From a virus, in IMG/VR virus record IMGVR_UViG_3300025913_000021, positions 1 through 64,000 of that record: a DNA stretch of 64,000 nt. One strand, 5' to 3'. The notes beneath the pieces are model-generated. The model saw only the letters and a list, made by a program, of their open reading frames with translations. It was not told the origin of the DNA and did not search any database. The position numbers and the translations under genes were made by a program. This document shows, in pieces, positions 10,342 to 63,390 of the stretch; within the stretch, counting starts at the first letter, position 1, and each line of letters starts with the position of its first letter.

Positions 10342-10536
10342 TCACAGTTCCTCCTCGATGACGTAGGGATGACTCGCTCGGTCCATCTGGAATGGCGAGC
10401 GCTCGGGGCACTTGCTGCACCCCGGCCTGCGGACGCCCTGCTCTGACCACGGAGCCCAGGCGTGGGAGGGTCGCGCCGAGTTCAGCGCGACGATCATGCG
10501 GCGACGACGCTCCTCGGGCGTGACGGCGGTCGTCAT
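10342..10536 (-). CDS. Small Cys/His protein with C-terminal tag YVIEEEL*
   Basis: ATGA-coupled start; MTTAVTPEERR...CSKC...HPYVIEEEL. Confidence 0.7.
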   Translation of the reverse strand: MTTAVTPEERRRRMIVALNSARPSHAWAPWSEQGVRRPGCSKCPERSPFQMDRASHPYVIEEEL

Positions 10537-10850
10537 GGCTGGATCAGGTTCTCGCTGTCGGCGCGCTCGGAGTTCAGGAACTCGTGCTGCGCGGGCCACT
10601 TCCTCGCGTACTCGTCCAAGAGTCGATCGTGCCACTTGCGAGTGAGGTGCCGGTGGCACGTGGTCCACGCCGTGCCCTCGACGTGGTGCTTGCCGATGCG
10701 GAAGCAGCTCACGCACTTGCGGTGCTGGTAGAACAGCACGACACCCGCGAGCAGCGTGACGTTGCTGATGTTGGCCGCGAAGCCGGACCACCACAGGTAG
10801 TAGGCGCTGTCCGGGCTGTTGACACCCAGAAAGTGCGCCAGCCAGGTCAC
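10533..10850 (-). CDS. Membrane protein with Cys/His motif
   Basis: TM segment then CVSC...CHRH; GTGA coupled. Confidence 0.65.
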   Translation of the reverse strand: MTWLAHFLGVNSPDSAYYLWWSGFAANISNVTLLAGVVLFYQHRKCVSCFRIGKHHVEGTAWTTCHRHLTRKWHDRLLDEYARKWPAQHEFLNSERADSENLIQP

Positions 10851-11221
10851 CCGAGTTCCCATTCGTGGATGACGTAGAGGTGAGCGCCGGGGTCGTCCAT
10901 GTAGATCGACCCGGCCGCGCAGTCCTGACAGAACAGCCGGTGGTCCATCGCGAAGTCGTAGTACGGACGGCCGTCCGAATCCAGCATCGGGTTGAAGGGA
11001 TGGTCGGGCCGCTCGGAGATCTTCCGCGCCGATTCGACGAGCCCGGGCAGCACCATCGGGAAGCAGCTCGTGCGATCGACGAAGCCACCGCTCGACTGGA
11101 TCGCGGGCTGCTGCCGGATGCGTGGGTCGCCGTTGTAGACGTGACTGGACCCGGCCACGTGCAGGTACCCGTCGGGAGAGCCCGCCGTCGTGATCGTCCA
11201 GGTGACCGTGCTCGTGGCCAT
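10847..11221 (-). CDS. Hypothetical protein with tag HLYVIHEWELG*
   Basis: ORF track; CQDC motif. Confidence 0.65.
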   Translation of the reverse strand: MATSTVTWTITTAGSPDGYLHVAGSSHVYNGDPRIRQQPAIQSSGGFVDRTSCFPMVLPGLVESARKISERPDHPFNPMLDSDGRPYYDFAMDHRLFCQDCAAGSIYMDDPGAHLYVIHEWELG

Positions 11222-11273
11222 GCTCTTATCATCGGCCACACACGGAGCTGAGTCACTTGCCCCGGAACGGGCG

Positions 11274-11308
11274 ACAGCCCCCGCCGTTGGAGGACAGGCG
11301 GGGGCTGT
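11274..11308. terminator. Hairpin terminator
   Basis: ACAGCCCCCGCC / GGCGGGGGCTGT. Confidence 0.6.
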
Positions 11309-11502
11309 GCTTGGACCTAGATCATCGGTGCAGACCGGCACCTCGTCCAGAGTCCGACGGCGTGTCGTCGTCCTTCTTCTTCTTCGAGCCGGTCGGCGTC
11401 GCGCTCGCCGCTGCCGTCTCGCTGCCGTTGTCCTGCGGGTCAGGGTTCTTCGGCCCGCTCGCGCTTGCCTGGTCCTGCTTCGACACCTGGGTGCCCTGGT
11501 CG

Positions 11503-11928
11503 TCAGCCACGTCTCTCTCCTCGCATCAAGTCCTGGAGGTCAGGCACCTCCTGGATCACGTACTCCGGTGCTCCATGCAGTATGTGCCGCCAGCGACCAC
11601 CGGCAAAGGTCAGCTCGACGGCCACCTGCGACCAGCCGAGGATGTCCTTCGCCCGCACGCGCACACCGGAAGCCTTCCCACCCATCAGCTCGCCACGAAA
11701 CCGAGCAGGCCCCTCGGCGGTGCAGTTGGTGACCATGCCTCGGCCGAGCTTGTTCATGTTCAGCGGCATCCAGCTCGCGCCGCCCGTGTCGGTGATCTCC
11801 AGGACGACGAGTCCACCCTTCTTCTCCGGGTGGAACTCTCCGATCTCGATCAGGAGATTGCCGGTGCCGGTGAAGAACATCGTGATCGCGTCGAAGCTGG
11901 GCACGATCTCCACGCTCGCGCCGATCAC
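11503..11928 (-). CDS. Hypothetical protein with tag YVIQEVP-DLQDLM
   Basis: GTGA-coupled start at 11928. Confidence 0.65.
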   Translation of the reverse strand: MIGASVEIVPSFDAITMFFTGTGNLLIEIGEFHPEKKGGLVVLEITDTGGASWMPLNMNKLGRGMVTNCTAEGPARFRGELMGGKASGVRVRAKDILGWSQVAVELTFAGGRWRHILHGAPEYVIQEVPDLQDLMRGERRG

Positions 11929-12290
11929 AGCCCCAGCTCCCGGATCACGTACAGGTGCACCTCGGGCCGGAAGGCGTTGCGGTAGTCGGCGTCCTGCCAG
12001 CAGTCGGCGCACACGATCGCCGGTTCGCTCAGCTCGCCCGCGTCACCGATCGGGTACTGCGCGTCCTTCGGGTGCCACTTGTGCGAGACCTGCGTGGGGG
12101 ACGCGCCGAACGAGCCGAGCGAGGCCCAATCCCTGTCCGCTGGCGCATACACGTTGGGCGGCATGCACACGTGGTCGCGGCGCGCGACGTACGCCTGTCC
12201 TCGATGGACGACGATCGCGCCCGCGTCGTAGCTCTTGGTCGCATCGGCGGTTCCGGCGAAGTGCGTCGGCGCTCCCCTGCTGAATTTCAC
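11925..12290 (-). CDS. Hypothetical protein with tag HLYVIRELGL*
   Basis: GTGA-coupled start; CADC motif. Confidence 0.65.
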   Translation of the reverse strand: MKFSRGAPTHFAGTADATKSYDAGAIVVHRGQAYVARRDHVCMPPNVYAPADRDWASLGSFGASPTQVSHKWHPKDAQYPIGDAGELSEPAIVCADCWQDADYRNAFRPEVHLYVIRELGL

Positions 12291-12622
12291 GGCTCCTCGT
12301 AGATCACGAAATCTTGCGGGAACGACGAACCGTCCTGTCGGTACGCCAGCACCGGCTGCGTGATCCCGTGCTGGCGCATGAACTCGACCTGCGAGTCGAT
12401 GATCCCCTTCTGCACGTCGCACTCGACCTCCAGCCCGTCGATCCGCTTCTGCAATGCCTCCAGCGTCTGACCCTGCGTCTCCTTCTGGGCATCGAGGCGC
12501 TCGTGCATGCCCTTGATGGCGGCTTCGCGCCGACGCACCAGCTTGAACAGGAGGTGGATCATCCAGCACGCAATCCCCAGGAGGACGGCCAGCACGGCGA
12601 TGATGGTCAGCGCCCACGCCAC
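12287..12622 (-). CDS. N-terminal TM plus coiled-coil protein with tag FVIYEEP*
   Basis: ORF track. Confidence 0.7.
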   Translation of the reverse strand: MAWALTIIAVLAVLLGIACWMIHLLFKLVRRREAAIKGMHERLDAQKETQGQTLEALQKRIDGLEVECDVQKGIIDSQVEFMRQHGITQPVLAYRQDGSSFPQDFVIYEEP

Positions 12623-12685
12623 GCGACGACTCTAACGTGAGACCGAACATTCCGACGAGACATTCAGCGAGCAAAGGAGAAGGAC

Positions 12686-12868
12686 ATGGCTTCCGGTAGC
12701 GGCGACCCGCAGTTCGGCCTCCCCTACACCGGCACCCCGGTGCAGCAGGACTCGCGCGACGGCAAGGTCGCCACCGTGCTCGACATGAACCGGATGGCGG
12801 CGCGCACGATCACCGAGCACGCCGACGACGACCACTACACGGACGACGGCAACCTCTACCACGAGTGA
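12686..12868 (+). CDS. Hypothetical protein
   Basis: AAGGAGAAGGA RBS. Confidence 0.6.
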   Translation: MASGSGDPQFGLPYTGTPVQQDSRDGKVATVLDMNRMAARTITEHADDDHYTDDGNLYHE

Positions 12869-13036
12869 AGTGATCTGCTCGTCGTGCGGGCTGCGGATCT
12901 TCGCCGACTGGCACGCCATCGCGTCTGATCGACGCGGCCTGCACCACGCGTTCTGCTACTACGACACGACGATGGTGGTCATGCTCGTGCCGCGCATCCG
13001 GCCACCCGTCCGCCGCCCGATCAGGATCTCGCTGTA

Positions 13037-13396
13037 GTGGCCCGCCGCCGCATCACGGAGGAGCGCAGGCGCGGATTCGCCCAAGCGATGCGCGAGCACC
13101 CCACCGAGGCCGAGCGAGCCTTGCAGCAGGCGTTCTGGCGGCTACACGTCCGGCCGCGACGCCAAGCGATCGTCTCGGGCTACATCGTGGACTTCTACTT
13201 CCCCCGGGCGAAGCTCATCGTCGAGGTGGACGGCTACTACCACTTCACCTCGAAGGGTCAGTCGGCCGACCGAGTTCGGACGCGCGTCCTTATGAGCAAG
13301 GGCTTCACGGTCATCCGCTTCCCGAACAGTCAAGTCCTCAAGGACCCGGGACGTTGCGCCCGAATCGTGCTGCAAAGGGTTGCGCGAGCCGCATGA
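13037..13396 (+). CDS. DUF559 / Vsr-like endonuclease
   Basis: PTEAERAL...RRQ...YIVDFY...LIVEVDGYYH...DRVRTRVLMSKGFTVIRF. Confidence 0.85.
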   Translation: MARRRITEERRRGFAQAMREHPTEAERALQQAFWRLHVRPRRQAIVSGYIVDFYFPRAKLIVEVDGYYHFTSKGQSADRVRTRVLMSKGFTVIRFPNSQVLKDPGRCARIVLQRVARAA

Positions 13397-13516
13397 CGAG
13401 GTAATGTTCGGTTTCACATCGGGCTCGTGGAAGGCGCAGGGTTTCGGGGGGACCTCGGGAGCGATCCACGAGCCCGATGTCTTGCGTTCGGGGGCGCTCA
13501 GGTTTTGAGCACGAGT

Positions 13517-13711
13517 TCAGTGCACGAAACGCACCATTGAAGCGCCAGTGATGCACGAGAGTCGGTCATTGCAGTAGCGCACGTTCTGCCGGATCGGGAA
13601 ATCCACGCCCTCCACGGCGACATCGAAGCTCAGCACGCTGATCTGTGCATCCGGGCGTTCATCGCCGCACACGTGGCACGTCCAGGTCATCGTCGTGAAG
13701 TCGAGCGTCAT
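13517..13711 (-). CDS. Small zinc-binding protein
   Basis: CHVC...CNDRLSC. Confidence 0.6.
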   Translation of the reverse strand: MTLDFTTMTWTCHVCGDERPDAQISVLSFDVAVEGVDFPIRQNVRYCNDRLSCITGASMVRFVH

Positions 13712-13728
13712 CTAACGACCGCCTAACG

Positions 13729-14097
13729 CTAGGGCTGCTCGATGATGACGTAGCCCGGCACGATGTAGGTATCGACGCCAGCAGCGTGCGCGATACCCAC
13801 CATGTGAGCCGTTCCGCGTCCACCCGGGAACGCGATCACCAGATCGGGCTTGAACTCGACCAGCATTCGCTTGTTGCGGATCGCTCCAGCAGCCTTGCCA
13901 TGCTGATCCCAGTCGGCGCGGTACTCACGCCACCGCACCTTGCGATCGACGGCCCAGAACTTGCCCCAGCGGTCGGCACCGGCAGCCCCGCCTTGAGCCA
14001 GTTCCGTGATCGGAGTCGTCTCGTGGATCTTGTCCAGGATCTCGTTGACCCGCTCGTGGTCGGCGTAGTCGCGACCACCGCAGACGAGCACCCTCAT
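13729..14097 (-). CDS. SLOG (YspA-like) protein with tag YVIIEQP*
   Basis: MRVLVCGGRDY...GGAAGAD...ADW..HGKAAGAIRN..ML...PDLVIAFPGGRGTAHM. Confidence 0.85.
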   Translation of the reverse strand: MRVLVCGGRDYADHERVNEILDKIHETTPITELAQGGAAGADRWGKFWAVDRKVRWREYRADWDQHGKAAGAIRNKRMLVEFKPDLVIAFPGGRGTAHMVGIAHAAGVDTYIVPGYVIIEQP

Positions 14098-14438
14098 ATG
14101 GACGGACATTCGTGAGCAGGCAGCTCGCAGGGCTCCAACCACCACGCCTGCACCTCGTCGGGACAGCGCAAGAGCTGCTTCATCAGGTCGGCCTCGGTGA
14201 GCTGATAGCCCCGGAACTGCGCCGTAATGATCATCGAGTCGAGACCTTTCTGATCACACGAGGCGTACTTCTCGTAGATCAGATCCAAGACGGCCTGCCG
14301 CTTCGCAGCGTCGATGTCCGGCTGGATCTGCCCCCGCATGACGATGCGGTCGATCGTCTCGTCCAGGGACTTCCGAGCAGCGGCGACCCGTGGGTCACGG
14401 CGTTCCAGCTCCGCCAGGTGTCGTTCCAGGGTGTCCAT
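14094..14438 (-). CDS. Hypothetical protein
   Basis: GAGAGG RBS; coupled to the SLOG gene. Confidence 0.6.
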   Translation of the reverse strand: MDTLERHLAELERRDPRVAAARKSLDETIDRIVMRGQIQPDIDAAKRQAVLDLIYEKYASCDQKGLDSMIITAQFRGYQLTEADLMKQLLRCPDEVQAWWLEPCELPAHECPSI

Positions 14439-14890
14439 CGAACGTCCTCTCTGCATTCCGAACATTCTTACGTGGACAGCGGGTGTGTGTCACGGGGGCA
14501 GTGCCATCCTTCTTTACCCGCATCCATCGACCACAGGTCGGACAACGCATGTGCCCGCGCAAGCACCGCTTCTGCCAGGGATTCCAGCCACCGTACGGAC
14601 TCGGAAATTCGGACGTTGGTCCATATCCGCGATGACCGCAGACCTGGCACGTCACCTTGCGACTGAGCGGAGTGTCGTAGGCGAACGTGACCTCCGGTCC
14701 AGGAACCGTCACGACAGGTTCGGCTGGTACGGCGACGGTCGGCTCATCACGCGACGACGAAGCCACTCGATCTTCTCGAACATGTGCTTCTTGCATGCCC
14801 CCTTGTCGGCCTGGAACGACTTGTACGGGCACCCAGGAACGATGCACGGGTGAGTCGGCTTCTCGTAGCGACCCTCCTTGCCGATGAGCA

Positions 14891-15217
14891 TCAGTAGCCA
14901 CGCTCCGCATGGGCATGCTTCTCGAACTCCGAGCGGATGACCTTCTTCCCGCAGGTGTCGCAGACCCAGTAGCCGACCTTGCGATCAGGTCGAAGGTTGA
15001 CGAAGCGCACGAAGCCGCGAGCAGTGGACCACGCCGACTTCTGCACGGTCGGATACGCACGGTCCTGGGAAGGAACGGCGTCCAGGACTCCCAGAATCAC
15101 TTCGGCTTCTCGGAGGAACTGAGCACGGTTCGACTCCCAGTCGTAGTCGTGCTCGCTGTTCGCGATCTCCCACAGCTTCCGCGCGACGACTTCGAGTCGC
15201 TCTTGCTGCTCGTCCAC
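14891..15217 (-). CDS. Hypothetical protein with a C-terminal CxxC...H motif
   Basis: Coding-like 3' part of ORF 14891-15559; start uncertain. Confidence 0.55.
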   Translation of the reverse strand: MDEQQERLEVVARKLWEIANSEHDYDWESNRAQFLREAEVILGVLDAVPSQDRAYPTVQKSAWSTARGFVRFVNLRPDRKVGYWVCDTCGKKVIRSEFEKHAHAERGY

Positions 15218-15299
15218 TCCAGGACCCCTCTCCAGGACGGCTCCGCATCCGCAGCGGTGGGCTAGCAGGTGATCATCGTGCCAGCGAGTGCATCCATGC

Positions 15300-15875
15300 A
15301 CCTCGCCTCGATCATCCCGCCACTCGACCTGCACTCCACCCCGCCCAACTCGCCTCCATGCTCCACGAGCTTTGCATCGAGTGGAGCACCGACGCCGTTG
15401 TCCTCGTCCGCCAGCTCTCCCTGGGTTCCCCACCGCCGAGAAGTCGATCTCGGTGGCCGTCTCCGCCACGTAGCCGTATGGACTGAGGGTTCCGTATGCC
15501 GTACGCCCGCACTCAATACTGCGCCGGGGCCCAACCGGCATCGGGCAGTAACCCTGCAACGGGGATCAGTGCCGAGGGTCAATCGGCCCCGGGGCTCGGT
15601 TGACGGTGGCCCGATCACCAAGGTCTCGGTTATCGCTGGTATCGCTGTTATCGCTGGTATCGGCTGCCCTCGGCGGGACGAAGCTACCACGGCTTCGTTC
15701 GAGATCGGAACATGCTCTCGGGGACGTTTTGACACGCTGAGAGAGCTTGCGACCAAGCATTCGCGTTGGCTACTGTTCGGCTTGCCGGACGGTGACTCGC
15801 ATCCCCCGTGCGCGATCCTCACGGCAACTGCGGCCCACCTCGTCGAACCCCACCCCGATAGAGGTGGGCCGCTCC
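15300..15875 (-). ncRNA. Candidate large structured non-coding RNA
   Basis: No convincing ORF; many nested inverted repeats (15830-41/15861-72, 15782-87/15822-27, 15571-78/15667-74). Confidence 0.35.
15629..15664. repeat. Tandem repeat, 4 x 9 bp, G(T/G)TATCGCT
   Basis: gttatcgct ggtatcgct gttatcgct ggtatcggc. Confidence 0.8.
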
Positions 15876-15878
15876 ATG

Positions 15879-16049
15879 TCACGGCTCCTCGGCGATGACG
15901 TACACGCCCTGGAACTCCTCCTCGGTGCTGACGAGCCGGAACCACGAGCCCATCCAGATGTACGCGCAGCCGGTCGCCGGGTCGAACCAGCAGTCGCCCT
16001 CCTCCGGGTTCACCGGCTCCTGGTCACCGACCATCCGCATCGAGATCAC
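15879..16049 (-). CDS. Small protein with tag YVIAEEP*
   Basis: GTGA-coupled start. Confidence 0.7.
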   Translation of the reverse strand: MISMRMVGDQEPVNPEEGDCWFDPATGCAYIWMGSWFRLVSTEEEFQGVYVIAEEP

Positions 16050-16351
16050 GGCTCCTCCTGGATGGTCGGCGGGTCGAGGTAGCGGCACTCGTACTCGCAC
16101 ATCAGGTAGTCCGGGTGGCCGCACATGCACTGGCCATCGACAGCGGCCGGGTGCATCGACTCGCCGTGGTACTCGAAGTCCGGCTCGTCGATGTCGAAGC
16201 CGATCGGGTCCACGTGCCCTGGGCAAACGCCGAGGATCGCTTCCAGACGAGCGTCGATTTCTTCCTCCGTGATCATCGCGGCCCACTGCTCGGCCAGCTC
16301 GTGCACCTCGGTGAACAGCGCGGCCAGTTCTCTGAGTTCGTCAGCGTCCAT
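16046..16351 (-). CDS. Acidic Cys/His protein with tag PTIQEEP*
   Basis: ORF track. Confidence 0.7.
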   Translation of the reverse strand: MDADELRELAALFTEVHELAEQWAAMITEEEIDARLEAILGVCPGHVDPIGFDIDEPDFEYHGESMHPAAVDGQCMCGHPDYLMCEYECRYLDPPTIQEEP

Positions 16352-16386
16352 ACCTATTAGGTCCAGCCGACGGCCCAGTCGTGAGG

Positions 16387-16569
16387 TCAGGGCTCCTCTT
16401 GGATCAGATACATGTTGTCGCCGTGCAGCCAGCCGACCTTCTTGGCGATGTCCAGAGCGATCATCCGGTCTCGCGCGCGGCGCAGTTCGTACTCGCTCGT
16501 GAAGATCAGCTCGTGCTCGGTCCCTTCGTGCGTAACCGCCACCAGGATCCAGGTGGGGACGACGGTCAG
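16387..16569 (-). CDS. Small protein with tag YLIQEEP* (probable CTG start; not in the ORF track)
   Basis: Manual translation (L)TVVPTWILVAVTHEG...GDNMYLIQEEP. Confidence 0.6.
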   Translation of the reverse strand: MTVVPTWILVAVTHEGTEHELIFTSEYELRRARDRMIALDIAKKVGWLHGDNMYLIQEEP

Positions 16570-16736
16570 GGCTCCTCCTCGATGATGTAGATCATGAGCG
16601 AGTTGAAGGCGATCGACAGTTCCAAGTACACCTCGTTGAAGGGTCGGTGCTGAGTCGAGGCGACGTTCTCGACCAGCTCGTTGAACAGTTTCCGCGCGTG
16701 CAGATCCTCGTCAAGCGCGGTCTCGATCGGATTCAC
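16566..16736 (-). CDS. Small protein with tag YIIEEEP* (not in the ORF track)
   Basis: Manual translation MNPIETALDEDL...SLMIYIIEEEP; GTGA coupled. Confidence 0.7.
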   Translation of the reverse strand: MNPIETALDEDLHARKLFNELVENVASTQHRPFNEVYLELSIAFNSLMIYIIEEEP

Positions 16737-17029
16737 ACGAAGGGGCTCAAGGGCGGGAAGTCCATGCGGGCCACGACCATCGTGATGACCTCGATGCTGG
16801 CCGAGCGTGGCCCCATCAGGCCGATGCCCATGAGCTGCGCGTCCATCGGTCGGTCGGCCTCGAAGTGGCTGGAGAACCGCGCGATAGCGAAGCCCTCATT
16901 TGACACGGCCTTCTTCACGACGACGTGCCGTCCTGCCAGGGCTGCCGTCTCCTCGACCCATTTCTGATGCTCGTCCAATTCCGACTCCATGCCGTTCATG
17001 ACGAGTTCGACGTGATACTCCAAACCCAT
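16733..17029 (-). CDS. Hypothetical protein (untagged)
   Basis: TAATG-coupled start. Confidence 0.65.
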   Translation of the reverse strand: MGLEYHVELVMNGMESELDEHQKWVEETAALAGRHVVVKKAVSNEGFAIARFSSHFEADRPMDAQLMGIGLMGPRSASIEVITMVVARMDFPPLSPFV

Positions 17030-17304
17030 TAGGGCTCCTCCTGGATGGTGTACTGCCAGGTCGCCCAGCGGTAGATCATGCCGTGCGGTGGCTTGAGGGA
17101 TGGTCGGAAGATCGTCTGTTCACAGCGCAGGCACTCGGCCGTGCTCAGATAGGCCGCGCGCATTTCGTCCACCGGTTCGTGGAACCGCAGTATCCGACCG
17201 TCGAGCGCCTGGCAGAGGAAGCTGAGTCCCCAGCTCCCCGACTTCGGAATGAGCTGGAAGGCTTCGGGCGTCCAGTCCAGATAGATCGTGCGCGTGCCGG
17301 TCAT
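17029..17304 (-). CDS. Small Cys protein with tag YTIQEEP*
   Basis: ORF track. Confidence 0.7.
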   Translation of the reverse strand: MTGTRTIYLDWTPEAFQLIPKSGSWGLSFLCQALDGRILRFHEPVDEMRAAYLSTAECLRCEQTIFRPSLKPPHGMIYRWATWQYTIQEEP

Positions 17305-17537
17305 GGCAGCTCCACGATCTCGTAGTCCTCATAGCGCGCCGCGAACTGCTCGTCGGTGTACCAGCGGGAACCGACGACCTTGAGCGCCTTGCAGTGCTGC
17401 CCGCAGTGCGCACACGTGCCCTGGAGGAACGGGAGGGACTCGAACGCGAGCCGTCGCTCTGCCGCCACGCGGTGTAGCCCGTTGACCGCGTAGAAGCAGT
17501 TGACCTCCTCGCGAGGATGGGGGACTTGAATGGTCAC
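17301..17537 (-). CDS. Small Cys protein with tag YEIVELP*
   Basis: ORF track. Confidence 0.7.
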   Translation of the reverse strand: MTIQVPHPREEVNCFYAVNGLHRVAAERRLAFESLPFLQGTCAHCGQHCKALKVVGSRWYTDEQFAARYEDYEIVELP

Positions 17538-17752
17538 GGCAGCTCCGAGATCACGTACTGCGGCCAGTCGGTTTCCAGGGCCGCGATGTGGTCGGCCTTC
17601 GCCTTCTCAACCCTGGCGACGCGAGCCTCCACGTCGAGTCGGTTCATCAGCACGCTGATCCCGACCTGGACGAGCACGATCGCGACGCAGGCACCGTAGA
17701 TGCAGACGAGCAGCACGTCGCTGATGATGCGACTTGCGAGATCACTGCTCAC
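17534..17752 (-). CDS. Small membrane protein with tag YVISELP*
   Basis: GTGA-coupled start; one TM segment. Confidence 0.7.
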   Translation of the reverse strand: MSSDLASRIISDVLLVCIYGACVAIVLVQVGISVLMNRLDVEARVARVEKAKADHIAALETDWPQYVISELP

Positions 17753-17928
17753 GGTTCCTCCTGGATGACCAGAAGTGGATCTATCTTGCTGTACCGACCG
17801 CGAGAGCTGACCTGCGCCGTATGGGTGATCTTGAAGCCCGGGTAGGGCAGGTGGCACCAACTCAGCGACTGGTCGTCCCAGTAGATGTAGTGGCCGCAGG
17901 TGTAGCACACCCGCATCCAGCGGCTCAC
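17749..17928 (-). CDS. Small Cys/His protein with tag LVIQEEP*
   Basis: GTGA-coupled start; CYTC. Confidence 0.7.
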   Translation of the reverse strand: MSRWMRVCYTCGHYIYWDDQSLSWCHLPYPGFKITHTAQVSSRGRYSKIDPLLVIQEEP

Positions 17929-18149
17929 GGTTCTTCCTGGATGACGTACTCCGGGATGCCGGTGCGGTGCTCCATGCACTCGTAGGTCTGTCGAGCGCCG
18001 ACGAACATGCACCCGCAGTGCATCGTGAAGTGGTACTGGTTCACGTTCTTCGCCTCACGCGCGCGGAGCGCTGCGATGCCGAGCGCCTGGTGCACGTCGC
18101 TGCTGACGCGAGGTCGGCGCTGGCCGGTCTCGTACCACTCATCGCTCAC
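17925..18149 (-). CDS. Small Cys/His protein with tag YVIQEEP*
   Basis: GTGA-coupled start. Confidence 0.7.
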   Translation of the reverse strand: MSDEWYETGQRRPRVSSDVHQALGIAALRAREAKNVNQYHFTMHCGCMFVGARQTYECMEHRTGIPEYVIQEEP

Positions 18150-18439
18150 GGCAGCTCCTCGATGACGAACGGTCGCGTCCGCCACGGTGAGGTGGTGATC
18201 GTGCCTTGGAAGCGCTTGTCCTTCGACGGGTGCGCGGTCACGTCGCGCTCGATGAGTCGCCCGCAGCCGCTACAGGTGGCCTCCTGGCCAACCCGGGGTA
18301 CGGTGCTGGCCGGAGCGCGCTGCGAGTACGCCGCAGGCAAGTGGCCACCGATGCTCGTCGGGCATTCCTCGTTCCACCAGCGCAGCTCCTTGCGGATGCG
18401 TCGGTGCGTGCGCTTGCGCTCGTTGCGGCCACGGGTCAC
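18146..18439 (-). CDS. Basic Cys protein with tag FVIEELP*
   Basis: GTGA-coupled start. Confidence 0.7.
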   Translation of the reverse strand: MTRGRNERKRTHRRIRKELRWWNEECPTSIGGHLPAAYSQRAPASTVPRVGQEATCSGCGRLIERDVTAHPSKDKRFQGTITTSPWRTRPFVIEELP

Positions 18440-18798
18440 GGTTCCTCGCTGATCACGTGGATGCTCTTGCAGCCGACCCAGGCGATCGGCCCACGCTCGT
18501 CGTCGGTCCAGGCGACATCGCGTGCGTCCCAATCGAGGTTGTCGCGATGCACGTCGCGCTCGAACTGGATTGCATCCTCACGATCGAGATCGCACTGCTG
18601 AGCCCAGTCAGGCGTGGGATCTGGACGCACGTCGAAAAGCTCATGGCAGCCGATGCAGCGCCAGGCGGTGCGCTTGCGGATGAAGCCCGCCGACTCCGGG
18701 ATGGTGTTGTGCCGGTGTGGCGTGCCGGTCATCAGCTCCATCTGGTGCTCCTCGATGTGGTCGCACGTCACCGTGCGGCACAGTGGACAGACCCTCAA
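18436..18798 (-). CDS. Cys/His-rich protein with tag HVISEEP*
   Basis: TTGA-coupled start. Confidence 0.7.
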   Translation of the reverse strand: MRVCPLCRTVTCDHIEEHQMELMTGTPHRHNTIPESAGFIRKRTAWRCIGCHELFDVRPDPTPDWAQQCDLDREDAIQFERDVHRDNLDWDARDVAWTDDERGPIAWVGCKSIHVISEEP

Positions 18799-19217
18799 AA
18801 CGGGTGATCGTTCGGGTCGGTTTCCCACCACGCAGGCACTGCCTTGTGCGTCTGCGGCGTCTGCGTCTGCGGCGTGTTCATGGCCTGGCGACGCTCGCGG
18901 TCCTCCTTGCGCTTGTAGGCCGCGTCCATGTAGTCCTTCGCCTCCTTGAGTCCGAGGCTGTCGCCGTACGACCCCTTCGTCATGGAGCGACTACGCAGCT
19001 CCTTGATCGCCATGATCTTCTTGTCCGGGAACTCCTCGACCAGCCGGTCGGCGAGCACGACGTTGGGGTCCGGCTGTCCGTACGCCGGGTCGATCGGCGA
19101 ACCGTGGATCAGCTTGCCGAGCCACTCCTGCGTGCCCTCGCGCTGCTGCAAGAGCATGTCGCGCTCCATGCGCAGCGCGGCCACCTCCAGCTCCAGCTCG
19201 CGGCAACGGTCACACAT
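18795..19217 (-). CDS. Protein with a ribosomal bL12 (L7/L12) C-terminal-like domain
   Basis: KKIMAIKELR...LGLKEAKDYMD matches the bL12 CTD signature. Confidence 0.7.
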   Translation of the reverse strand: MCDRCRELELEVAALRMERDMLLQQREGTQEWLGKLIHGSPIDPAYGQPDPNVVLADRLVEEFPDKKIMAIKELRSRSMTKGSYGDSLGLKEAKDYMDAAYKRKEDRERRQAMNTPQTQTPQTHKAVPAWWETDPNDHPF

Positions 19218-19431
19218 GGTGGGTGGTCTCCTTCGGGTCGATCTCGAACTCGGGGACCGTGTAGCCGGTGGGCACCCACTCGGTCGCGCTCACGTTCCCG
19301 TCCCTGTCAATGTTCGGGATGGTGTCCACGTAGTTGCGGCACTCGCGGCAGAACGAGCGCAGCCACTTCGTGCCGTCACGCTCCACGATCATCGCCTCGC
19401 GCACCGAGGCCGAGGTGTGCGGGCAGCTCAC
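19210..19431 (-). CDS. Small zinc-binding protein
   Basis: CPH...CREC. Confidence 0.6.
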   Translation of the reverse strand: MSCPHTSASVREAMIVERDGTKWLRSFCRECRNYVDTIPNIDRDGNVSATEWVPTGYTVPEFEIDPKETTHHV

Positions 19432-19622
19432 GGTTCCTCCTGGATGATGTACGGCTGCATCACCTGGAGACCGTGGCCGGGAGGAGTTCTAGGCATGGTG
19501 GCGAACACCTTGCCCAGGTCGCGGAACGCTTGCTGCATCTTCCGGCCGTTCATCGCGAAGTCCACGTAGCTCTTGGTGACCGCATCGTCGGACGGGGGCT
19601 CGACGTTGGAAAGCTCACTCAC
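19428..19622 (-). CDS. Small protein with tag YIIQEEP*
   Basis: GTGA-coupled to the HIT gene. Confidence 0.7.
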   Translation of the reverse strand: MSELSNVEPPSDDAVTKSYVDFAMNGRKMQQAFRDLGKVFATMPRTPPGHGLQVMQPYIIQEEP

Positions 19623-19975
19623 TCCTTCACCTGACCAGTCCACGGCAGGTGCAGGCCGTCGCCGGGCCGACGAGGCACGTAGTGGATGTGCAGGTGGTAC
19701 ACGCTCTGCGTCGCGTGGAAGCCGTCGCTGGTGATGAGGTTGAAGTCATCGGGCGAGTGAGTGGCGTAGGTGGCAGCAGCCTCGAACACGCGCCCCGTGA
19801 TCATCGGGTCCTCGCTCGCGCGAGCGGTGTGCTTGCGATGGACGAACAGCCGATGACCGGGCACGACGGGGTTCAGCGGCTCGAAGCTCACCACATCGGC
19901 GAACTCGGTGTCCTGGTAGCTGTCCTCCGGCTTCGAGCTGCGCAGCTTCGCGCAGAACACGCAATCAGTCGTCAT
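19619..19975 (-). CDS. HIT-family nucleotide hydrolase
   Basis: CVFC...PLNPVVPGH...QSVYHLHIHYVP histidine triad. Confidence 0.9.
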   Translation of the reverse strand: MTTDCVFCAKLRSSKPEDSYQDTEFADVVSFEPLNPVVPGHRLFVHRKHTARASEDPMITGRVFEAAATYATHSPDDFNLITSDGFHATQSVYHLHIHYVPRRPGDGLHLPWTGQVKE

Positions 19976-22915: not shown

Positions 22916-22926
22916 CAGGCACCTCG

Positions 22927-52957: not shown

Positions 52958-53874
52958 TGGCGAAGGTCTATTGCCCAGGCTGCAAGCAACTGCTCGAACA
53001 CGATCGCGGCCACCTGCCGCTGCACATGACCGACATCCAGCGCGGCCTGCTCGTCACCGGCTCGAAGGTGTGCGACTACAGCAACAAGAAGATCGTCACC
53101 GAGAAGGCGACCGCCGAGTACACGTACGACTGCCCGGACTGCGGGATGGAGACCTCGCTCAAGATCACCGAGGACTACCCGGGCGCATTCACCGACGGCA
53201 TCAAGCCCTGGATCGAGATCGACTGCATCGGCTGCTCGGTGAGCCACGACGGCTACTACTGCTCGAACCCGGGCTGTGGCATCGAAGTCCTGGAGCGGAC
53301 GAACGAGTTCTACCGCGTGTCCGATTCCGAGGGCAGATACCTGCCGAAGGAAACCGGCGAGGACAAGCCGGTCATGCACCGGGACTTCGACACCGAGGCC
53401 GACGCGGGGTCCTACATCGCGTCGATCACTCAGCCGGACGACGAGCCGGATCGGTACAACCTCGACGCCATGCCCTCGGGCTGGTACGAGGTACGCAACG
53501 GCGTCGCTGGTGACAGCGACTGCCGAGCAGCGCTGCACGACCCGAAGCTGCTGCTGATGTCCGGTGGCAGCGCCTACCACGTGGGCGTGCTCAGGCCCGA
53601 GTTCCACAAGACGGTGCGCGTGACCGACGGTCACGTCATCGACGAGGAGCCCGAGCCCGGCGAGGTCATCCTGGCCACGGACGCCGAACCGGTCGCAGTG
53701 GACGGGATGCTCATCTGCGACTGCTGCAACCTTGCTCGACCCGAACTGCCCTACGAACACCAGTACGACGACGGGCGTCCCTCGCAGGTCTACTGCCAGG
53801 AGTGCTACGACGCCGGATGTGACGACGAATGCGCCGTGCGCGCCCGAGCCCGACAGGGGAGGACCCATGCCTGA
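52957..53874 (+). CDS. Cys-rich acidic protein
   Basis: Multiple CxxC motifs; TGATG coupled. Confidence 0.7.
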   Translation: MAKVYCPGCKQLLEHDRGHLPLHMTDIQRGLLVTGSKVCDYSNKKIVTEKATAEYTYDCPDCGMETSLKITEDYPGAFTDGIKPWIEIDCIGCSVSHDGYYCSNPGCGIEVLERTNEFYRVSDSEGRYLPKETGEDKPVMHRDFDTEADAGSYIASITQPDDEPDRYNLDAMPSGWYEVRNGVAGDSDCRAALHDPKLLLMSGGSAYHVGVLRPEFHKTVRVTDGHVIDEEPEPGEVILATDAEPVAVDGMLICDCCNLARPELPYEHQYDDGRPSQVYCQECYDAGCDDECAVRARARQGRTHA

Positions 53875-54626: not shown

Positions 54627-55013
54627 TTGCCGAAGCTGACCCTCCAGGGGTGTAAGCATCCGATCCTCCAACCGTGGGGAGCGGACTACGACCCGTGGAC
54701 GAGCGAGGGCTCGAAGCAGGTCACCTGCATGGTCTGCTACGAGCGCCTGATCGTCGAGGACGACCAGCCCGCCAACCGCATCTTTGGTCGTCGCGGCGGC
54801 GCAATGGACAACTCGAAGCTGCCTCGCGCCCAGCCAGCTCTGCCGTGCGAGCACCGAAGCAAGACGCCCATCCAGAAGCCCGAGAAGTTCACTCACGGCG
54901 ACTACACCGATGCGCTCTGCGAGACGTGCGGCGTCGTGCTGCGTCACCCCGAAGGCCCCGGCCAGTGGGAGGAGGTGATCTTCAATGGCTATGTCATCCG
55001 AGAGGAGCCCTGA
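54627..55013 (+). CDS. Double zinc-binding protein with tag YVIREEP*
   Basis: Two CxH...CxxC units; probable TTG start. Confidence 0.65.
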   Translation: MPKLTLQGCKHPILQPWGADYDPWTSEGSKQVTCMVCYERLIVEDDQPANRIFGRRGGAMDNSKLPRAQPALPCEHRSKTPIQKPEKFTHGDYTDALCETCGVVLRHPEGPGQWEEVIFNGYVIREEP

Positions 55014-55014
55014 C

Positions 55015-55323
55015 GTGCCCACCTGCATGCGCTGCGAGCGGACGTTCAGCTCGCATCGGGGTTTGGACATCCATCGAAATCGGGCTCACCCGGTCTCGGA
55101 CAACTTCGTCATCGACTTCCTCAACCTCCCGCACGCACAGCAGGAGGAGGTTCTGCGCATCGTCGCGCCGGACGGCAAGCCGATCGACCTGGACCAGATC
55201 GTGCCTCGGATGCTGGCGATCGTCAGTTCACCGCAGAGCCGTGCCGAGAACACGACACTGCGCTCGGCGCTGGCGAAGATCACCGGAGTCGAGTACCGCT
55301 ACATGATTTCGGAGGAGCCGTGA
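55015..55323 (+). CDS. C2H2 zinc-finger protein with tag YMISEEP*
   Basis: CMRCERTFSSHRGLDIHRNRAH. Confidence 0.75.
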   Translation: MPTCMRCERTFSSHRGLDIHRNRAHPVSDNFVIDFLNLPHAQQEEVLRIVAPDGKPIDLDQIVPRMLAIVSSPQSRAENTTLRSALAKITGVEYRYMISEEP

Positions 55324-55589
55324 CGATGACACTGCCTCCGGCGATGCCCGCCTGGCAGCCCCAGGACAAGCGCCCACTGCCTGATGCGATCGGCACGGGC
55401 ACGCAGTACGTCAAGGAGTGCGCCAACAGCCAGCGCGACAACGGCTACCACTTCCCGAAGTGCGGCGTGCTGATGTCACCGGACGAGCGCTCGGACTGGT
55501 GCGCGTCCTGCGGTCTGCGGATCTTCTTCCACCCGGCTTCGCAGAACTGGTACAGCGCCACGTGGCACCTGATCATCGAGGAACCATGA
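55320..55589 (+). CDS. Small Cys protein with tag HLIIEEP*
   Basis: ORF track. Confidence 0.7.
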   Translation: MTMTLPPAMPAWQPQDKRPLPDAIGTGTQYVKECANSQRDNGYHFPKCGVLMSPDERSDWCASCGLRIFFHPASQNWYSATWHLIIEEP

Positions 55590-56062
55590 GCGGCGTCGGG
55601 CACGCGGCACTCACGTGGTACTGCATCGACTGCGCGCACTACTTCGACGACCCGATGGACTCCAACGCTCACGTCCGCAAGACCGGGCACACCGCGCGCT
55701 GCGTCAACATGGCCGATCACGACACGTGGGTCCATGACGAACGCGACGACGTACCGCTCACCCGCAAGACGCAGCTCGTCAGAAAGGCTGCTCGTCAGTT
55801 TCGGACGGGCGAGGTGCTGTACCTGTTCGGGTGCGACACCGGGCCGGAACTCTACGGCGTGCTGCGCGGCGCGTTCGTCATCACCGAGAAGAAGCACCAG
55901 TCCGACACGGGCGTGAGCTTCTTCCTGCGTCACCAGTACGTCCAGCCCAACAAGCCGTGGTCGGGTCCGGGTCGCAGCTACTTGGTCGAGTTCGCACGCG
56001 ACCAGTTGCTGTACCGGCTCTCGGGCACGCCGGTCACATTCGTCATTCGGGAACTGCCGTGA
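55586..56062 (+). CDS. C2H2-like protein with tag FVIRELP*
   Basis: CIDC...H....H; ATGA coupled. Confidence 0.7.
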   Translation: MSGVGHAALTWYCIDCAHYFDDPMDSNAHVRKTGHTARCVNMADHDTWVHDERDDVPLTRKTQLVRKAARQFRTGEVLYLFGCDTGPELYGVLRGAFVITEKKHQSDTGVSFFLRHQYVQPNKPWSGPGRSYLVEFARDQLLYRLSGTPVTFVIRELP

Positions 56063-56262
56063 CCGCCGAACTGCCACAGCTACGCGATGCGCTCGTGGAG
56101 CTATTCAGAGAGCACGAAGATGAGATCACCGAGGAGTACGGCGACTACGGCTACGGCGGCGAATGGCACGACCTCGGTCGTCGTCTCGTTCCCGAGTCTG
56201 CTGCCGACTTGGTGATCCGATTCCTGGCTTCCAGGACGTACGTCATACAGGAGACGCCATGA
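56059..56262 (+). CDS. Small protein with tag YVIQETP*
   Basis: GTGA coupled. Confidence 0.7.
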   Translation: MTAELPQLRDALVELFREHEDEITEEYGDYGYGGEWHDLGRRLVPESAADLVIRFLASRTYVIQETP

Positions 56263-56693
56263 CGAGACCAGCAAGCAAACGCGCCCGCATCCTGGTCAAG
56301 GGGACGGCGCTGCACTTCTTCGACGCGGGCCTCGGCCAGCGCGGCAGTGACAAGTTCTATCGGGCTTTCGTGTACGAGCACCCGGCGGGCCAGTGGCACG
56401 CCGTAATGTGCTGGGGCCGCGACGGCACCTACGGCCAGAGCAAGGCCGAGGACTTCCCCACCGAGTACGACGCCAACAAGGTGATCCAGCGGAAGATCGC
56501 CGAGAAGATGCGCCACGGCTACGAGATCATCGGCAACGGCGACGCGGTGCTCGACATCGCCTCGTCCATCCGGCTGGAAATGCTCGGCGTGGAGTTCATG
56601 CACGCCGTCGCGCAGCGCGACCCGGACAAGAGCCGGATGAGTGGAGGCATCATCATCCAGGAGGAACCGGACCTGATGGACTTGCTGGGCTGA
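56259..56693 (+). CDS. WGR-domain protein with tag IIIQEEP-DLMDLLG*
   Basis: SDKFY...WGRDGTYGQ...EKMRHGY. Confidence 0.8.
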   Translation: MTRPASKRARILVKGTALHFFDAGLGQRGSDKFYRAFVYEHPAGQWHAVMCWGRDGTYGQSKAEDFPTEYDANKVIQRKIAEKMRHGYEIIGNGDAVLDIASSIRLEMLGVEFMHAVAQRDPDKSRMSGGIIIQEEPDLMDLLG

Positions 56694-56758
56694 GCCCCTA
56701 GTCCAATCCGAACATCGGACTACGCTCAACCTCAACTTCACCCGTCGATAGGACTCCG

Positions 56759-57118
56759 ATGAACAAGATCGCCTCAACACGTCAGGTCGCCCAAGTCGCT
56801 CAAGGACTGAGCGACGCGTTCCTGCGGTGCCGCGACATCGGCCACCAGTGGAGGCTCTACTACCAGCACCGCGAAGGCTCCGTGATCGTGCGGAAGATGT
56901 GGTGCCCATCGTGCAAGACGAACCGCAAGACGAAGATCAACCGCTACGGCGAGGTCGTGTCCAACAGCTACGACTACGACGACGGTTACCTCATCGAGGG
57001 ACTCGGCCGCGTGCAGGGTCGCAGCAAGGCGCTGCTCCGAGCCGAAGCGATCAACCGCACACCCGAGATCGACCTCGACTACCGCATCTTCGAGGAACCC
57101 AGCACTGCCGACCTGTAG
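56759..57118 (+). CDS. Zinc-binding protein with tag YRIFEEP-STADL*
   Basis: CRDIGHQW...CPSC. Confidence 0.7.
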   Translation: MNKIASTRQVAQVAQGLSDAFLRCRDIGHQWRLYYQHREGSVIVRKMWCPSCKTNRKTKINRYGEVVSNSYDYDDGYLIEGLGRVQGRSKALLRAEAINRTPEIDLDYRIFEEPSTADL

Positions 57119-60215: not shown

Positions 60216-60800
60216 ATGGCCCAGTGGGGAACGACGGAATCTGACGAGCAGCCGATTCGGGGACAGCGCATCTTCGCTCCCTGGACCGACGAGCAGGTGA
60301 CACAGCTCAACGCTTGGCAGCAGTCCGGGTACATGCATCCCTTTACGTGCGGCGGCTCCGTGCACGACGGCAACGTGCACGGCGAGCGACCCACGCTGTT
60401 CGCCGAGCGTGACGGCTGGGTCTGTCCCGACACGAACTGCGACTATCGGCAGAACTGGGCGCACTCGTTCATGGCGAGCCCGGAAGTGCTGACCAACATG
60501 GACGACCAGCACAACCGACTGCTCAGTGAGTTCTTCGACGCCCAGCGTCAGCGGGCACGGGCATCCGCCAAGCGTCTGCCGTCCCCCGAGCCGGAACCCC
60601 AGTGGGCTCCGACGGAGCAGCTCATCGAGGAAGCGTGCGAGGTCATGCACGACGCCTACGAGAAGGCCGCTCTCGGCACTGGTTGGGCCACGAATCCCGC
60701 ATCACGCAAGCCGTGGGCGGACGTGCCCGAGGCCAACAAGGAGACGATGCGTGCTGCCGTTCACGCGCTGCTCGTCTGGCTCCAGAAGGGGGCGCCATGA
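60216..60800 (+). CDS. Hypothetical protein
   Basis: GGAGAGG RBS; HPFTC...C..C motif. Confidence 0.65.
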   Translation: MAQWGTTESDEQPIRGQRIFAPWTDEQVTQLNAWQQSGYMHPFTCGGSVHDGNVHGERPTLFAERDGWVCPDTNCDYRQNWAHSFMASPEVLTNMDDQHNRLLSEFFDAQRQRARASAKRLPSPEPEPQWAPTEQLIEEACEVMHDAYEKAALGTGWATNPASRKPWADVPEANKETMRAAVHALLVWLQKGAP

Positions 60801-61422
60801 GGCAGGTCAAGACGAAAGAGGACTTCGCCGAGATCACGGCGATGGGCTGGTCGGGCTGCATGCACGACAGCGACTGCGCGTGCAGCGACGCCACGCAGGA
60901 GCGCGACCGCAGGATCTTGAACGATTGGGCGCAGCGTCCTCGTCGTCGTCGGCGCACTCCAGCCAAGCCGAAACCCGATCGCACCCTGCTCGACGGTGAG
61001 TCGATGATGATCCAGACACCGCACGGCCTCGTCTGGATCAGCGCGCTGGTCGGCACGAGCGTCGTTGTCTACGACAACCCGGAGCACAACCCGGTAGCGA
61101 TGATCAACCTGCCGAGCCACGCATGAGCAGCAAGATCAAGGACGTGATCAACGGCCCGTGGCCGTTCGTCGCGCCGACACCCATAGGTGAGGGCTGGGGC
61201 TGGGGCTCACGCCTCATCGAGATCGCCTTCACTCCGGTCGGCATCGTCTTTTGGACGTGCGTCTGGATCGGACGTGGCTTCATGTGGATCGGCGAACGGC
61301 TGTTCCGATGAAGGCGTATCCGTATATCCCAGGCGTTCCCGCCGCTGGTCACGTAACGTCGTCCGGCTACTGGCATCCAGGAGCGATTCACAACTGCTGC
61401 AAGTGCGAACCCAAGGAGACAC

Positions 61423-62154
61423 GTGACCGCCGTCCGACTCGACAATCCGTACTGGCGGATCGTCGAGAAGTTCCCTAACTCGGGCCTGCGCTGGAGTAAG
61501 GGCAGGTTCGAGCCTGAGAGTTACCCCATCATCAGCGACCTGATGGAAGCCCATCGCAAGGGCACGCCACTGCCGGACCTCGCGAACTTCGACGAGAACA
61601 AGAGCCCGACGCGCTCGTCGCTGGTGAAGCAGTTCGCCTGGGCGATCCCGTCGGATCAGACGCTCGCCTGGATTCGCAAGAGGCTGCTCGGCCGCGAGGT
61701 CGTGGAGATCGGCGCGGGTCGTGGCTACTGGGCGTGGATGTTGGAGCAGGTCGGCATCCCGGTCACCGCCTACGACGAGAAGCTGCTCGGCCTGGGCGAG
61801 GAGATCGGCTACTTCAAGGACGCGGGCGAGCACACGTACCACGAGATCCTGCGTGGTGGTCCGGAGAAGGCGGCGCTGCACCCGGACAAGGTGCTGTTCC
61901 TGTGCTGGCCTCCGTACGACGACGACATGGCCGTGAACTGCCTGCGCGCCTACCAGGGCGACACGCTGATGTTCGAAGGCGAGGGCGAGGGTGGCTGCAC
62001 GGCCAACGACGCCTTCTTCACCGAGCTGGCGGTCAACTGGGTGGAAGTCGATCAGCACTACCCGACGCAGTGGTCGGGCATCCACGACTTCCTGACGATC
62101 TACCGACGCAGCGAGCGCCAGATCGACCTGACGATCATCCGAGAGGAGCCCTGA
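61423..62154 (+). CDS. Class I SAM-dependent methyltransferase-like protein with tag TIIREEP*
   Basis: VVEIGAGRGYWA motif I; LFLCWPPY. Confidence 0.7.
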   Translation: MTAVRLDNPYWRIVEKFPNSGLRWSKGRFEPESYPIISDLMEAHRKGTPLPDLANFDENKSPTRSSLVKQFAWAIPSDQTLAWIRKRLLGREVVEIGAGRGYWAWMLEQVGIPVTAYDEKLLGLGEEIGYFKDAGEHTYHEILRGGPEKAALHPDKVLFLCWPPYDDDMAVNCLRAYQGDTLMFEGEGEGGCTANDAFFTELAVNWVEVDQHYPTQWSGIHDFLTIYRRSERQIDLTIIREEP

Positions 62155-62555
62155 TGAGCTTCGACAGCACCACGAGGGTGCACGTCACCGACCCGGCCTT
62201 CATGAACGCCCTGCTCGGTCGTCGCATCGTGGCCATCGACGACGAGGCGACCACGCTGATCCTGGACAACGGGGTCCGCATGGAGTTCGAGGTCGATATC
62301 TCGGACTGCTGCTCGTCGGTCGTGCTCAAGAGCCTGGCCACCGACGAGAACGTCATCACCAACGTCGAGGTCGCCGACAACGAGGACGAGACCGGTGGCG
62401 AGGGTGCGTACCGCGCGTGGATCCACGTGATCACCGAGGCGGGCGAGCTGAACATCGCCGAGGCCGAGGGCGACGCCTCGAACGGCTACTACCTGCACGG
62501 CTTCGCACTCGCCGTCACCATCACCACTCCGCACCTCATCCAGGAGCACCCATGA
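62154..62555 (+). CDS. Acidic hypothetical protein with tag HLIQEHP*
   Basis: TGATG coupled; SDCCS...SNGYY. Confidence 0.7.
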   Translation: MSFDSTTRVHVTDPAFMNALLGRRIVAIDDEATTLILDNGVRMEFEVDISDCCSSVVLKSLATDENVITNVEVADNEDETGGEGAYRAWIHVITEAGELNIAEAEGDASNGYYLHGFALAVTITTPHLIQEHP

Positions 62556-63184
62556 CCACACCGATCGAGACGCCCACCAAGACCCACAACGACGTGCGCC
62601 TGGAGATCCGCGCTGGCTTCGGCGGGATGCCGCTGAGCATGGCCGGGTTCCTGCTCCAGGCGATCGGCACCGCCTACCCGCACACGCAGATCGAGACCCA
62701 GCACGCGACGGGCATCAACCTGCGCATCCCGTACGAGGACTTCCTCGACTTCGAGGGCCTGCCCGAGGGCGCGCTCGACGAGGTGCTGCCCGGCAAGGAC
62801 GACCCGGAGACCATCGCGTTCACGAACGGCTTCACGAAGGGCGGCGCGGGGATCAGCCCGCCGCCGTGGCTGGCACAACTGCTGGCCACGACGGCGGGCA
62901 TGCTGGAGGAGCAGCTCACCGACGACGTGGCTCCGAACTACATGGAGCTGACGATCATGCCGCAGGACGGCGGCGAGCCCTTCAAGTGGATCATCTGCAA
63001 GCGGGGCAAGCCGTCGCCGCACGATTTCAGACGAGCAGCCGAATCCCAGGTCGAGGCTCTGCTCCAGTGCATCCGCGACGCGATGGCCGAGATCGAGATC
63101 CAGGTGAACGAGGTCGAGGCCGCTGGCCTGAACGCCCTGCACCTCAAGAAGGCGTGGGGAAACCTCAACTCGCTGATCTCGTGA
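62552..63184 (+). CDS. Hypothetical protein
   Basis: ATGA coupled. Confidence 0.65.
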   Translation: MTTPIETPTKTHNDVRLEIRAGFGGMPLSMAGFLLQAIGTAYPHTQIETQHATGINLRIPYEDFLDFEGLPEGALDEVLPGKDDPETIAFTNGFTKGGAGISPPPWLAQLLATTAGMLEEQLTDDVAPNYMELTIMPQDGGEPFKWIICKRGKPSPHDFRRAAESQVEALLQCIRDAMAEIEIQVNEVEAAGLNALHLKKAWGNLNSLIS

Positions 63185-63390
63185 AGGGTCCGCCGTCCGG
63201 CGACCCAGCCGCGCTCCAGAGGTGGTGCGAGGACGTGCGCTCACGCAACGAGCGAGAGCGGCAAGACCGCTGGTGGCACGAGATCGCACTCGAACGAGCC
63301 CGTCGCTACTGGGATGACGGCACCGGCTACGGCGCGGAGGTCTGGGATCAGAACATGCCGATCCTCGTGATCGTCGAACTGCCCAGCTAG
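63181..63390 (+). CDS. Small protein with tag LVIVELPS*
   Basis: GTGA coupled. Confidence 0.6.
   Translation: MKGPPSGDPAALQRWCEDVRSRNERERQDRWWHEIALERARRYWDDGTGYGAEVWDQNMPILVIVELPS

Follow-up and report, generated by a model that had tools for sequence, protein, structure and literature searches.

A 149,260-bp virus record (IMGVR_UViG_3300025913_000021), which represents an uncultured soil phage and whose first 64,000 nucleotides are hereafter called the window, was found to encode a short C-terminal peptide tag (type A) on dozens of otherwise unrelated small proteins. The tag is under selection at the peptide level, is specific to the phage lineage, is free in its position relative to the stop codon, and is replaced on orthologous carriers of related phages by a second tag (type B). 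A module of three genes at window positions 47173-51973, encoding a 393-amino-acid (aa) protein, a MoxR-type AAA+ ATPase, and a vWA protein, is present in the tagged genomes, and based on sequence comparison we tentatively suggest that this module may read the tag as a docking signal. A preliminary description, made from the window alone, had proposed a sorting, docking or degradation signal added to accessory proteins. The present analysis supports a peptide-level, lineage-specific signal on unrelated accessory proteins, with no tag on isolate homologues of two carriers (SLOG and DUF7448) or on core genes; among the options, docking to a phage hub fits best, a degron is possible, and capsid packaging is poorly supported.

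Genes were predicted with our own codon-bias caller (272 genes, 91% coding, gene starts approximate), and counts are genome-wide unless stated otherwise. Each of the 36 stop coordinates previously listed was found to carry its motif in an open frame. By regular expression, 30 genes end exactly in I-x-E-x-P-stop (0.05 expected), and 9 further genes have I-x-E-x-P no more than 15 residues from the stop. A profile assigned the tag (aromatic-aliphatic-I-x-E-E, with P often next) to 45 of 245 proteins of up to 320 aa, compared with 2.9 expected from internal control windows; the profile was trained on the tags themselves, and the regular-expression count is the non-circular one. Tagged proteins are small (median 99 aa, median pI 6.2), and CxxC is twice as common among them as among untagged small proteins (44% vs 22%). 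The carriers are as diverse as first described, being unrelated to one another in comparisons that excluded the tag (best blastp E 0.008), and the tag is missing from core genes and confined to accessory proteins. Two carriers have a clear membrane anchor, and in both the tag is predicted to face the cytoplasm. Coding-type GC bias at third codon positions was detected even in the shortest tagged frames. The tag array is not an assembly artefact, because one contig from the rhizosphere assembly of another study covers window positions 10300-24300 with 112 substitutions. Contigs from RNA runs covered parts of the array thinly and were not counted as proof of expression. Some details of the preliminary description required revision. 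The invariance of I-x-E is partly a product of member choice, with two genes beyond the window having V for I; the member with its tag placed at 52957 is doubtful (no Pro, and an untagged orthologue in the related locus L065); and an in-frame internal copy at 53632 had been overlooked. A further internal type A copy lies 66 residues before the stop of an acidic 173-aa protein (genome 94842-95363, L058 10842-11363, minus strand). The tag may also resemble SUMO- and ubiquitin-interacting motifs, IEEVD, and encapsulin cargo peptides.

Selection was found to act on the peptide and not on a nucleic acid signal. When a 21-base matrix built from the tags was used to scan the genome, all strong matches were in coding frame, and no strong match was detected out of frame, antisense, or between genes; the single 'intergenic' match (genome 89834) proved to lie in an uncalled open frame, 26 codons ahead of its stop. 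Other DNA-pattern scans were of low yield, with one match being a response-regulator-like end. The codons for Val, Glu, and Pro vary in the source genome, and the Glu codons of tags in relatives are divided between GAG (42) and GAA (33). The variety of Ile codons, previously cited as evidence for peptide selection, follows genome usage (38 ATC, 2 ATT, 1 ATA) and proves little. Although 26 tags contain a Shine-Dalgarno (SD)-like word, 17 of which overlap the next start, coupling to the next gene showed no excess (27/45 tagged vs 114/202 untagged genes), and 14 tagged genes have no close downstream gene. In 10 orthologues of the tagged WGR protein (56259-56693, plus strand, tag at 56649-56669), down to 50% identity, I133, E135, E136, and P137 are invariant. 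The structure model places these residues in a tail outside the domain that is predicted to be disordered (predicted local distance difference test [pLDDT] about 49). The tag thus behaves as a short linear motif, in that it is conserved yet lies outside the folded domain of the model. The claim of selection on the peptide is therefore borne out by frame restriction, varying synonymous codons, ordinary coupling, and invariance among WGR orthologues.

Relatives were gathered via their terminase, WGR, and vWA genes to follow the distribution of the tag. The same core was found in relatives with tails of 0-17 residues to the stop and with the Pro often missing; only 22 of 75 relatives' tags run to the stop, compared with 33 of 45 in the source genome. 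By profile, type A was detected among the small proteins of G002 (16/97), L065 (8/31), L001 (7/17), L112 (20/47), L113 (7/27), L114 (7/35), L115 (7/38), L117 (6/26), L141 (13/46), and L142 (4/32). The tag is specific to the lineage, and it is missing from the homologues of the SLOG and DUF7448 carriers in isolates. A 70%-identical orthologue of the gene at 56759-57118 is also untagged; gain or loss of the tag is therefore rapid. Neither type A nor type B was found in the more distant relatives G005, G009, G010, G011, G012, G013, and G014. A stretch resembling type B in the portal protein and others resembling type A in two genes of the virion module were rejected as chance, as they lie in segments conserved across the family and do not consistently follow tag type.

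The type A expansion was absent from G003 and G004, two near-complete relatives with terminases 62-66% identical to that of the source phage. An unbiased scan of their C-termini revealed another motif, an acidic amphipathic helix of P-T/S-D-E-E-I-x-x-A-I-x-S-I, which the profile assigned to 11 of 210 small proteins in G003 and 17 of 235 in G004. This type B tag is always positioned 4-17 residues before the stop, and its Ser codons are drawn from both families (TCN 15, AGC 9). Beyond CxxC, no N-terminal motif was found to be shared. Two carriers (window 52200-52538 and genome 85408-85602) have type A in the source phage and type B on their G003/G004 orthologues, and a conserved acidic pair is common to both tags. 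Judging from these sequences, the family as a whole tags its proteins and each clade has its own tag sequence, the label having been swapped between sister clades; this suggests that the reader, too, changes from phage to phage. Three adjacent paralogues of G004 (34916-35877, L067 14916-15877, minus strand) end in a shorter helical variant, V-T-D-E-E-V followed by K/R-E-L/V-F-G-L, which is possibly a third tag form.

The candidate reader is encoded by three genes on the plus strand: (i) the 393-aa protein (47173-48354), of a family without a name, as candidate adaptor or reader; (ii) the MoxR-type ATPase (48515-49765; PF20030 bpMoxR, AAA_5, and AAA_lid_8) as candidate motor; and (iii) the vWA protein (50024-51973; VWA_2), which has a complete MIDAS (an adhesion site that depends on a metal ion), as candidate reader. 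By Pfam, the MoxR-clade AAA+ gene adjoins the vWA gene, i.e., the two form a MoxR-vWA pair. The AAA+ and VWA genes were initially listed merely as untagged; they are without the tag, yet are the leading candidates for its reader. The MIDAS residues (D478, S480, S482, T547, and D579) are invariant or nearly so across 78 sequences. The 393-aa family comprises about 160 clusters at 50% and has an invariant His320 and Cys335 together with a conserved Asp317; based on this conservation, these residues might form a catalytic or metal site, and tags might be the substrate of the protein as an enzyme. No clear match to it was found in Pfam, PHROG, PDB sequences, or the ESM Atlas. Fold searches with its structure model (pLDDT 87) gave no clear match (best Z 5.3, to a WGR-like middle part), which does not by itself establish a new fold. 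In the type B relative L140, a ribosomal L12-like gene (12650-13090) stands between MoxR and vWA.

The distribution of the module was compared with that of the tags. The 393-aa gene is present in 13 of 13 tagged genomes or loci in which the region was read, and when four distant homologues of this gene were chosen blind to tags, tag-like ends were found nearby in all four (clear by profile in L141, L142, and L138; by eye only and below the profile threshold in L140). MoxR was found wherever a check was possible, L141 included; L141 had been considered as a tagged phage without MoxR/vWA, as neither is in its 21-kb locus, and was rejected as such, as MoxR is listed on a contig that agrees with it in length (154,658) and count. 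The untagged G005, G009, and G012 have no 393-aa gene and only distant MoxR/vWA proteins (about 30%). The vWA residues around the MIDAS form two signatures corresponding to tag type: 9 of the 31 conserved positions on the ligand face of the domain switch, compared with 3 of 47 elsewhere (P = 0.009); for MoxR, 6 of 93 positions differ between tag types. Intermediate vWA signatures occur in P0019, P0038, P0039, and P0040.

These data suggest a model in which the phage lineage would append type A to new accessory proteins as a short docking signal, which would hang free at or near the C-terminus and be bound by one phage-encoded partner. The MIDAS metal of the vWA protein would grip the invariant Glu, with the flanking residues giving specificity, and the MoxR hexamer would then remodel, release, or hand on the client, the 393-aa protein perhaps serving as adaptor. 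The outcome for the client could be activation, turnover, or localization. CbbQ-CbbO is an established case of a MIDAS that binds an acidic client residue (PMC4660213), such binding has been proposed for NorQD (PMC13036017), and PMC7159879 describes extended peptides bound by a MIDAS. The parts of this model differ in strength. The tag is presumably bound by some partner, and we lean slightly towards one encoded by the phage; that this partner is the module is somewhat less likely than not, and a contact between Glu and MIDAS is more doubtful still. The tag itself is real and under selection, and a mechanism behind it is probable.

Several observations weigh against reading by the module. With a larger sequence set, the excess at the vWA face falls to 7 of 30 vs 5 of 52 (P = 0.09); the N-terminal part of the vWA protein differs as often between tag types (15/63); and the ligand-face windows were drawn post hoc, with the differences already seen and without a three-dimensional model. 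Types A and B represent a single evolutionary split, such that any gene diverging there co-varies with the tag, and the MoxR, vWA, and 393-aa gene trees each place type B in one clade. The 47-kb fragment G008 has an intact-looking 393-aa homologue and tags none of its 78 small proteins, and untagged relatives also hold MoxR/vWA. Furthermore, a beta-like and a helical tag would need to be accommodated by homologous sites, and published proposals (PMC7824862) assign phage MoxR-vWA a role in virion assembly.

Readers outside the module were also considered. The tag could be read by the host as a degron or localization signal, via an adaptor of Clp, FtsH, or the proteasome or via some other hub protein, with the clade tags differing by host or target. 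This arrangement needs no phage gene, suits soluble and membrane-anchored carriers equally, and accounts for the module gene without tags in G008; a conserved reader, however, poorly explains the full change of tag between phages with such similar terminases, and we consider it unlikely. To our knowledge, acidic ends are not typical of bacterial C-degrons, which counts against a host degron, and we know of no likeness, by eye, of the tag to the ssrA, Pup, or HbYX degrons. The reader could instead be a phage protein outside the module, e.g., DUF6744 (genome 66750), one encoded at genome 67862 or at 68064, or a protein of the head, as several genes are distributed in the same way or have diverged between the clades. 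These candidates have no known peptide-binding fold, unlike the vWA MIDAS, which makes this alternative distinctly unlikely.

The remaining alternatives were judged to be weaker still. Glu-Pro ahead of a stop promotes trans-translation in Escherichia coli (PMC3985003), and the tag DNA could combine an SD with an overlapping start, the Glu-Pro-stop slowing termination for re-initiation or tmRNA tagging. The tags that end at the stop (33 of 45) and the SD-like words overlapping the next start are in line with this ribosomal role, which is nevertheless improbable given that coupling is no commoner in tagged genes, 14 of them lack a close downstream gene, and a fixed Pro-stop register fails (the relatives' tags seldom reach the stop and often lack Pro, and type B never ends there). 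A ribosome effect may still be overlaid on the last three codons in the source genome. Loading into the prohead, possibly with cleavage by a prohead protease, was suggested by the I-x-E of type A and the precedent of T4, in which one short peptide occurs on diverse small proteins with an L/I-x-E-like gp21 site (PMC9026906). The T4 signal is an N-terminal propeptide of 10 residues, whereas the tag is C-terminal; moreover, the carriers are encoded in accessory regions outside the virion module, include membrane-anchored proteins, and are not notably basic, no scaffold or capsid protein is tagged, and type B is without I-x-E. The earlier suggestion of gp21-type cleavage or capsid loading is thus very improbable. 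A type VII secretion signal would suit the Y-x-x-x-E consensus and the probable actinobacterial host, and a recombination site for gene cassettes would suit the tandem arrays of tagged genes. Tyr is present in just 65 of 120 type A tags and in none of type B, some carriers are anchored in the membrane, and among 10 carriers scanned no WXG-like Pfam match was found, with the one modelled carrier having a WGR fold; as for cassettes, the DNA has no strong copies outside the coding frame, and three DNA runs, represented by contigs only, revealed no joints at tags. Both are extremely improbable, the former having been raised in the preliminary description.

Comparison with characterized systems places the candidate module among MoxR AAA+/vWA pairs such as CbbQ-CbbO (PMC4660213), NorQ-NorD (PMC13036017), and the MIDAS of Rea1/midasin, with which it shares the order of MoxR then vWA and a complete MIDAS. 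CbbQ-CbbO engages its client via an acidic residue, as is proposed for NorQ-NorD, and an acidic pair is present in both tags, for which binding is only proposed. The known pairs serve one or two clients, which are folded and contacted at a surface residue; in contrast, dozens of unrelated proteins have an appended tag here, and a third, unnamed gene precedes MoxR. The MoxR-vWA proteins known from jumbo phages and from Acidianus two-tailed virus (PMC7824862) are likewise encoded by viruses, with virion assembly as their proposed role, and in vWA-MoxR ternary conflict systems (PMC7159879) peptide binding by the MIDAS is proposed and the proposed role is effector deployment; unlike here, the passages searched in both sources describe no common C-terminal tag on accessory proteins. 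The capsid targeting sequence of T4 IPI-III (PMC9026906) resembles the tag as a short terminal peptide with I-x-E on diverse small phage proteins, but it is N-terminal, cleaved, and restricted to a few basic proteins, compared with about 45 carriers that include membrane proteins and replacement by an unrelated helix in the sister clade. Most tags of the source genome end in x-Pro-stop, as in Glu-Pro-stop pausing and SsrA tagging (PMC3985003), yet the conserved core of the tag is upstream, at a variable distance from the stop, and in relatives it is retained where Pro is missing. Docking of several proteins on one hub is also known from other short C-terminal peptides. The clamp-binding peptides of T4 gp33, gp55, and gp43 and acidic tails on single-stranded DNA-binding proteins act in this manner; they involve three to four core replication and transcription proteins, compared with a sixth of the proteome here.

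Within the window, the tagged genes are clustered. On the minus strand, six small genes are tagged in the region of 10342-14097 (stops at 10342, 10847, 11503, 11925, 12287, and 13729), including a membrane-anchored protein (12287-12622) and the SLOG protein (13729-14097). These are followed by a dense array of 12 tagged genes at 15879-19622 (stops 15879 to 19428), in which all but one of the 12 consecutive genes that reach to 18771 are tagged and one encodes a membrane-anchored protein (17534-17752), and by four genes at 21825-27534 (stops at 21825, 22521, 23943, and 27403), three of which have 3-14 residues past the tag. In a related strain, seven substitutions cluster at 16721-16751, at the end of the single untagged gene of the dense array, and create no tag. 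Related strains also have a compensating one-base insertion and deletion (21587-21593) and a three-base insertion (10940) inside accessory genes. On the plus strand, a tag (34568-34591) ends a 40-aa gene for which coupling is impossible, as the next gene is 553 bp on, and another (43489-43509) occurs in a Cys-rich protein of 122 aa, with 7 residues after it. The 112-aa gene at 52200-52538 is the carrier whose G003 and G004 orthologues have the helical tag. The overlooked internal copy (53632-53652) lies 73 residues before the stop of the gene at 52957-53874, and in the L065 orthologue of this gene the internal copy is near the C-terminus. Seven consecutive tagged genes at 54627-57118 include those for zinc-binding proteins and the WGR protein, and three at 61423-63390 encode a 243-aa methyltransferase-like protein (weak Pfam match), a DUF7448 protein, and a 69-aa protein.

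The source phage has 66% GC, is present in rhizosphere metagenomes, and encodes a tape-measure-sized protein of 2,427 aa, Ku, a ligase, a class II ribonucleotide reductase, and a WhiG-like factor of the sigma-70 family (genome 88435-89112, L058 4435-5112, plus strand) that is also found in G003, G004, and G009. Its host is probably an actinobacterium. No close isolate was identified (best capsid match 45%, next Bacillus phage Basilisk at 28%), and the search for prophages and hosts gave nothing usable, the sole match to a metagenome-assembled genome being a 3.6-kb contig that is not host evidence. A 359-aa protein (window 38723-39802, plus strand) that combines a signal peptide and Thr-rich repeats with an LAxTG-like word, a membrane segment, and a tail of basic residues presumably resembles an actinobacterial sortase substrate. 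The Rfam scan detected no family besides one tRNA; a tRNA-Met (CAT) at window 5742-5816 (minus strand) adjoins the terminase gene. A second vWA protein, TerF-like (PF10138; genome 71864-72631, L057 7864-8631, plus strand), is not common to G003 or G004. Genes for DUF6744 and a RuvB-like AAA+ protein (L057 2750-3775 and 5680-6783) accompany those for MoxR-vWA, Ku, ligase, and WGR whether or not the relative is tagged.

In the literature outside subscription journals, neither of the two tags nor proteome-wide C-terminal tagging in phages was found to be described. New in this case are the change of tag type between orthologous carriers and a named three-gene candidate reader; a motif that docks on a hub is of a known kind, here with no described family. 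For most small phage proteins no function is known, and they seem to have nothing in common; here a sixth of a proteome carries one selected tag, which assigns such proteins to one pathway even with another reader. It is conceivable, if rather less than likely, that large soil phages possess a private addressing system in which their own MoxR-vWA and a new adaptor read a short acidic tag that is placed on every newly acquired accessory protein, with tag and reader switched together at least once to give two orthogonal codes. The swap makes this question testable with synthetic genes and without a cultured phage. If true, the tagged proteins would be the first substrates for phage MoxR-vWA pairs, the tag and reader would provide an orthogonal pair for protein engineering, and there would be a general answer to the role of MoxR-vWA in phages and to how dozens of small proteins are jointly handled.

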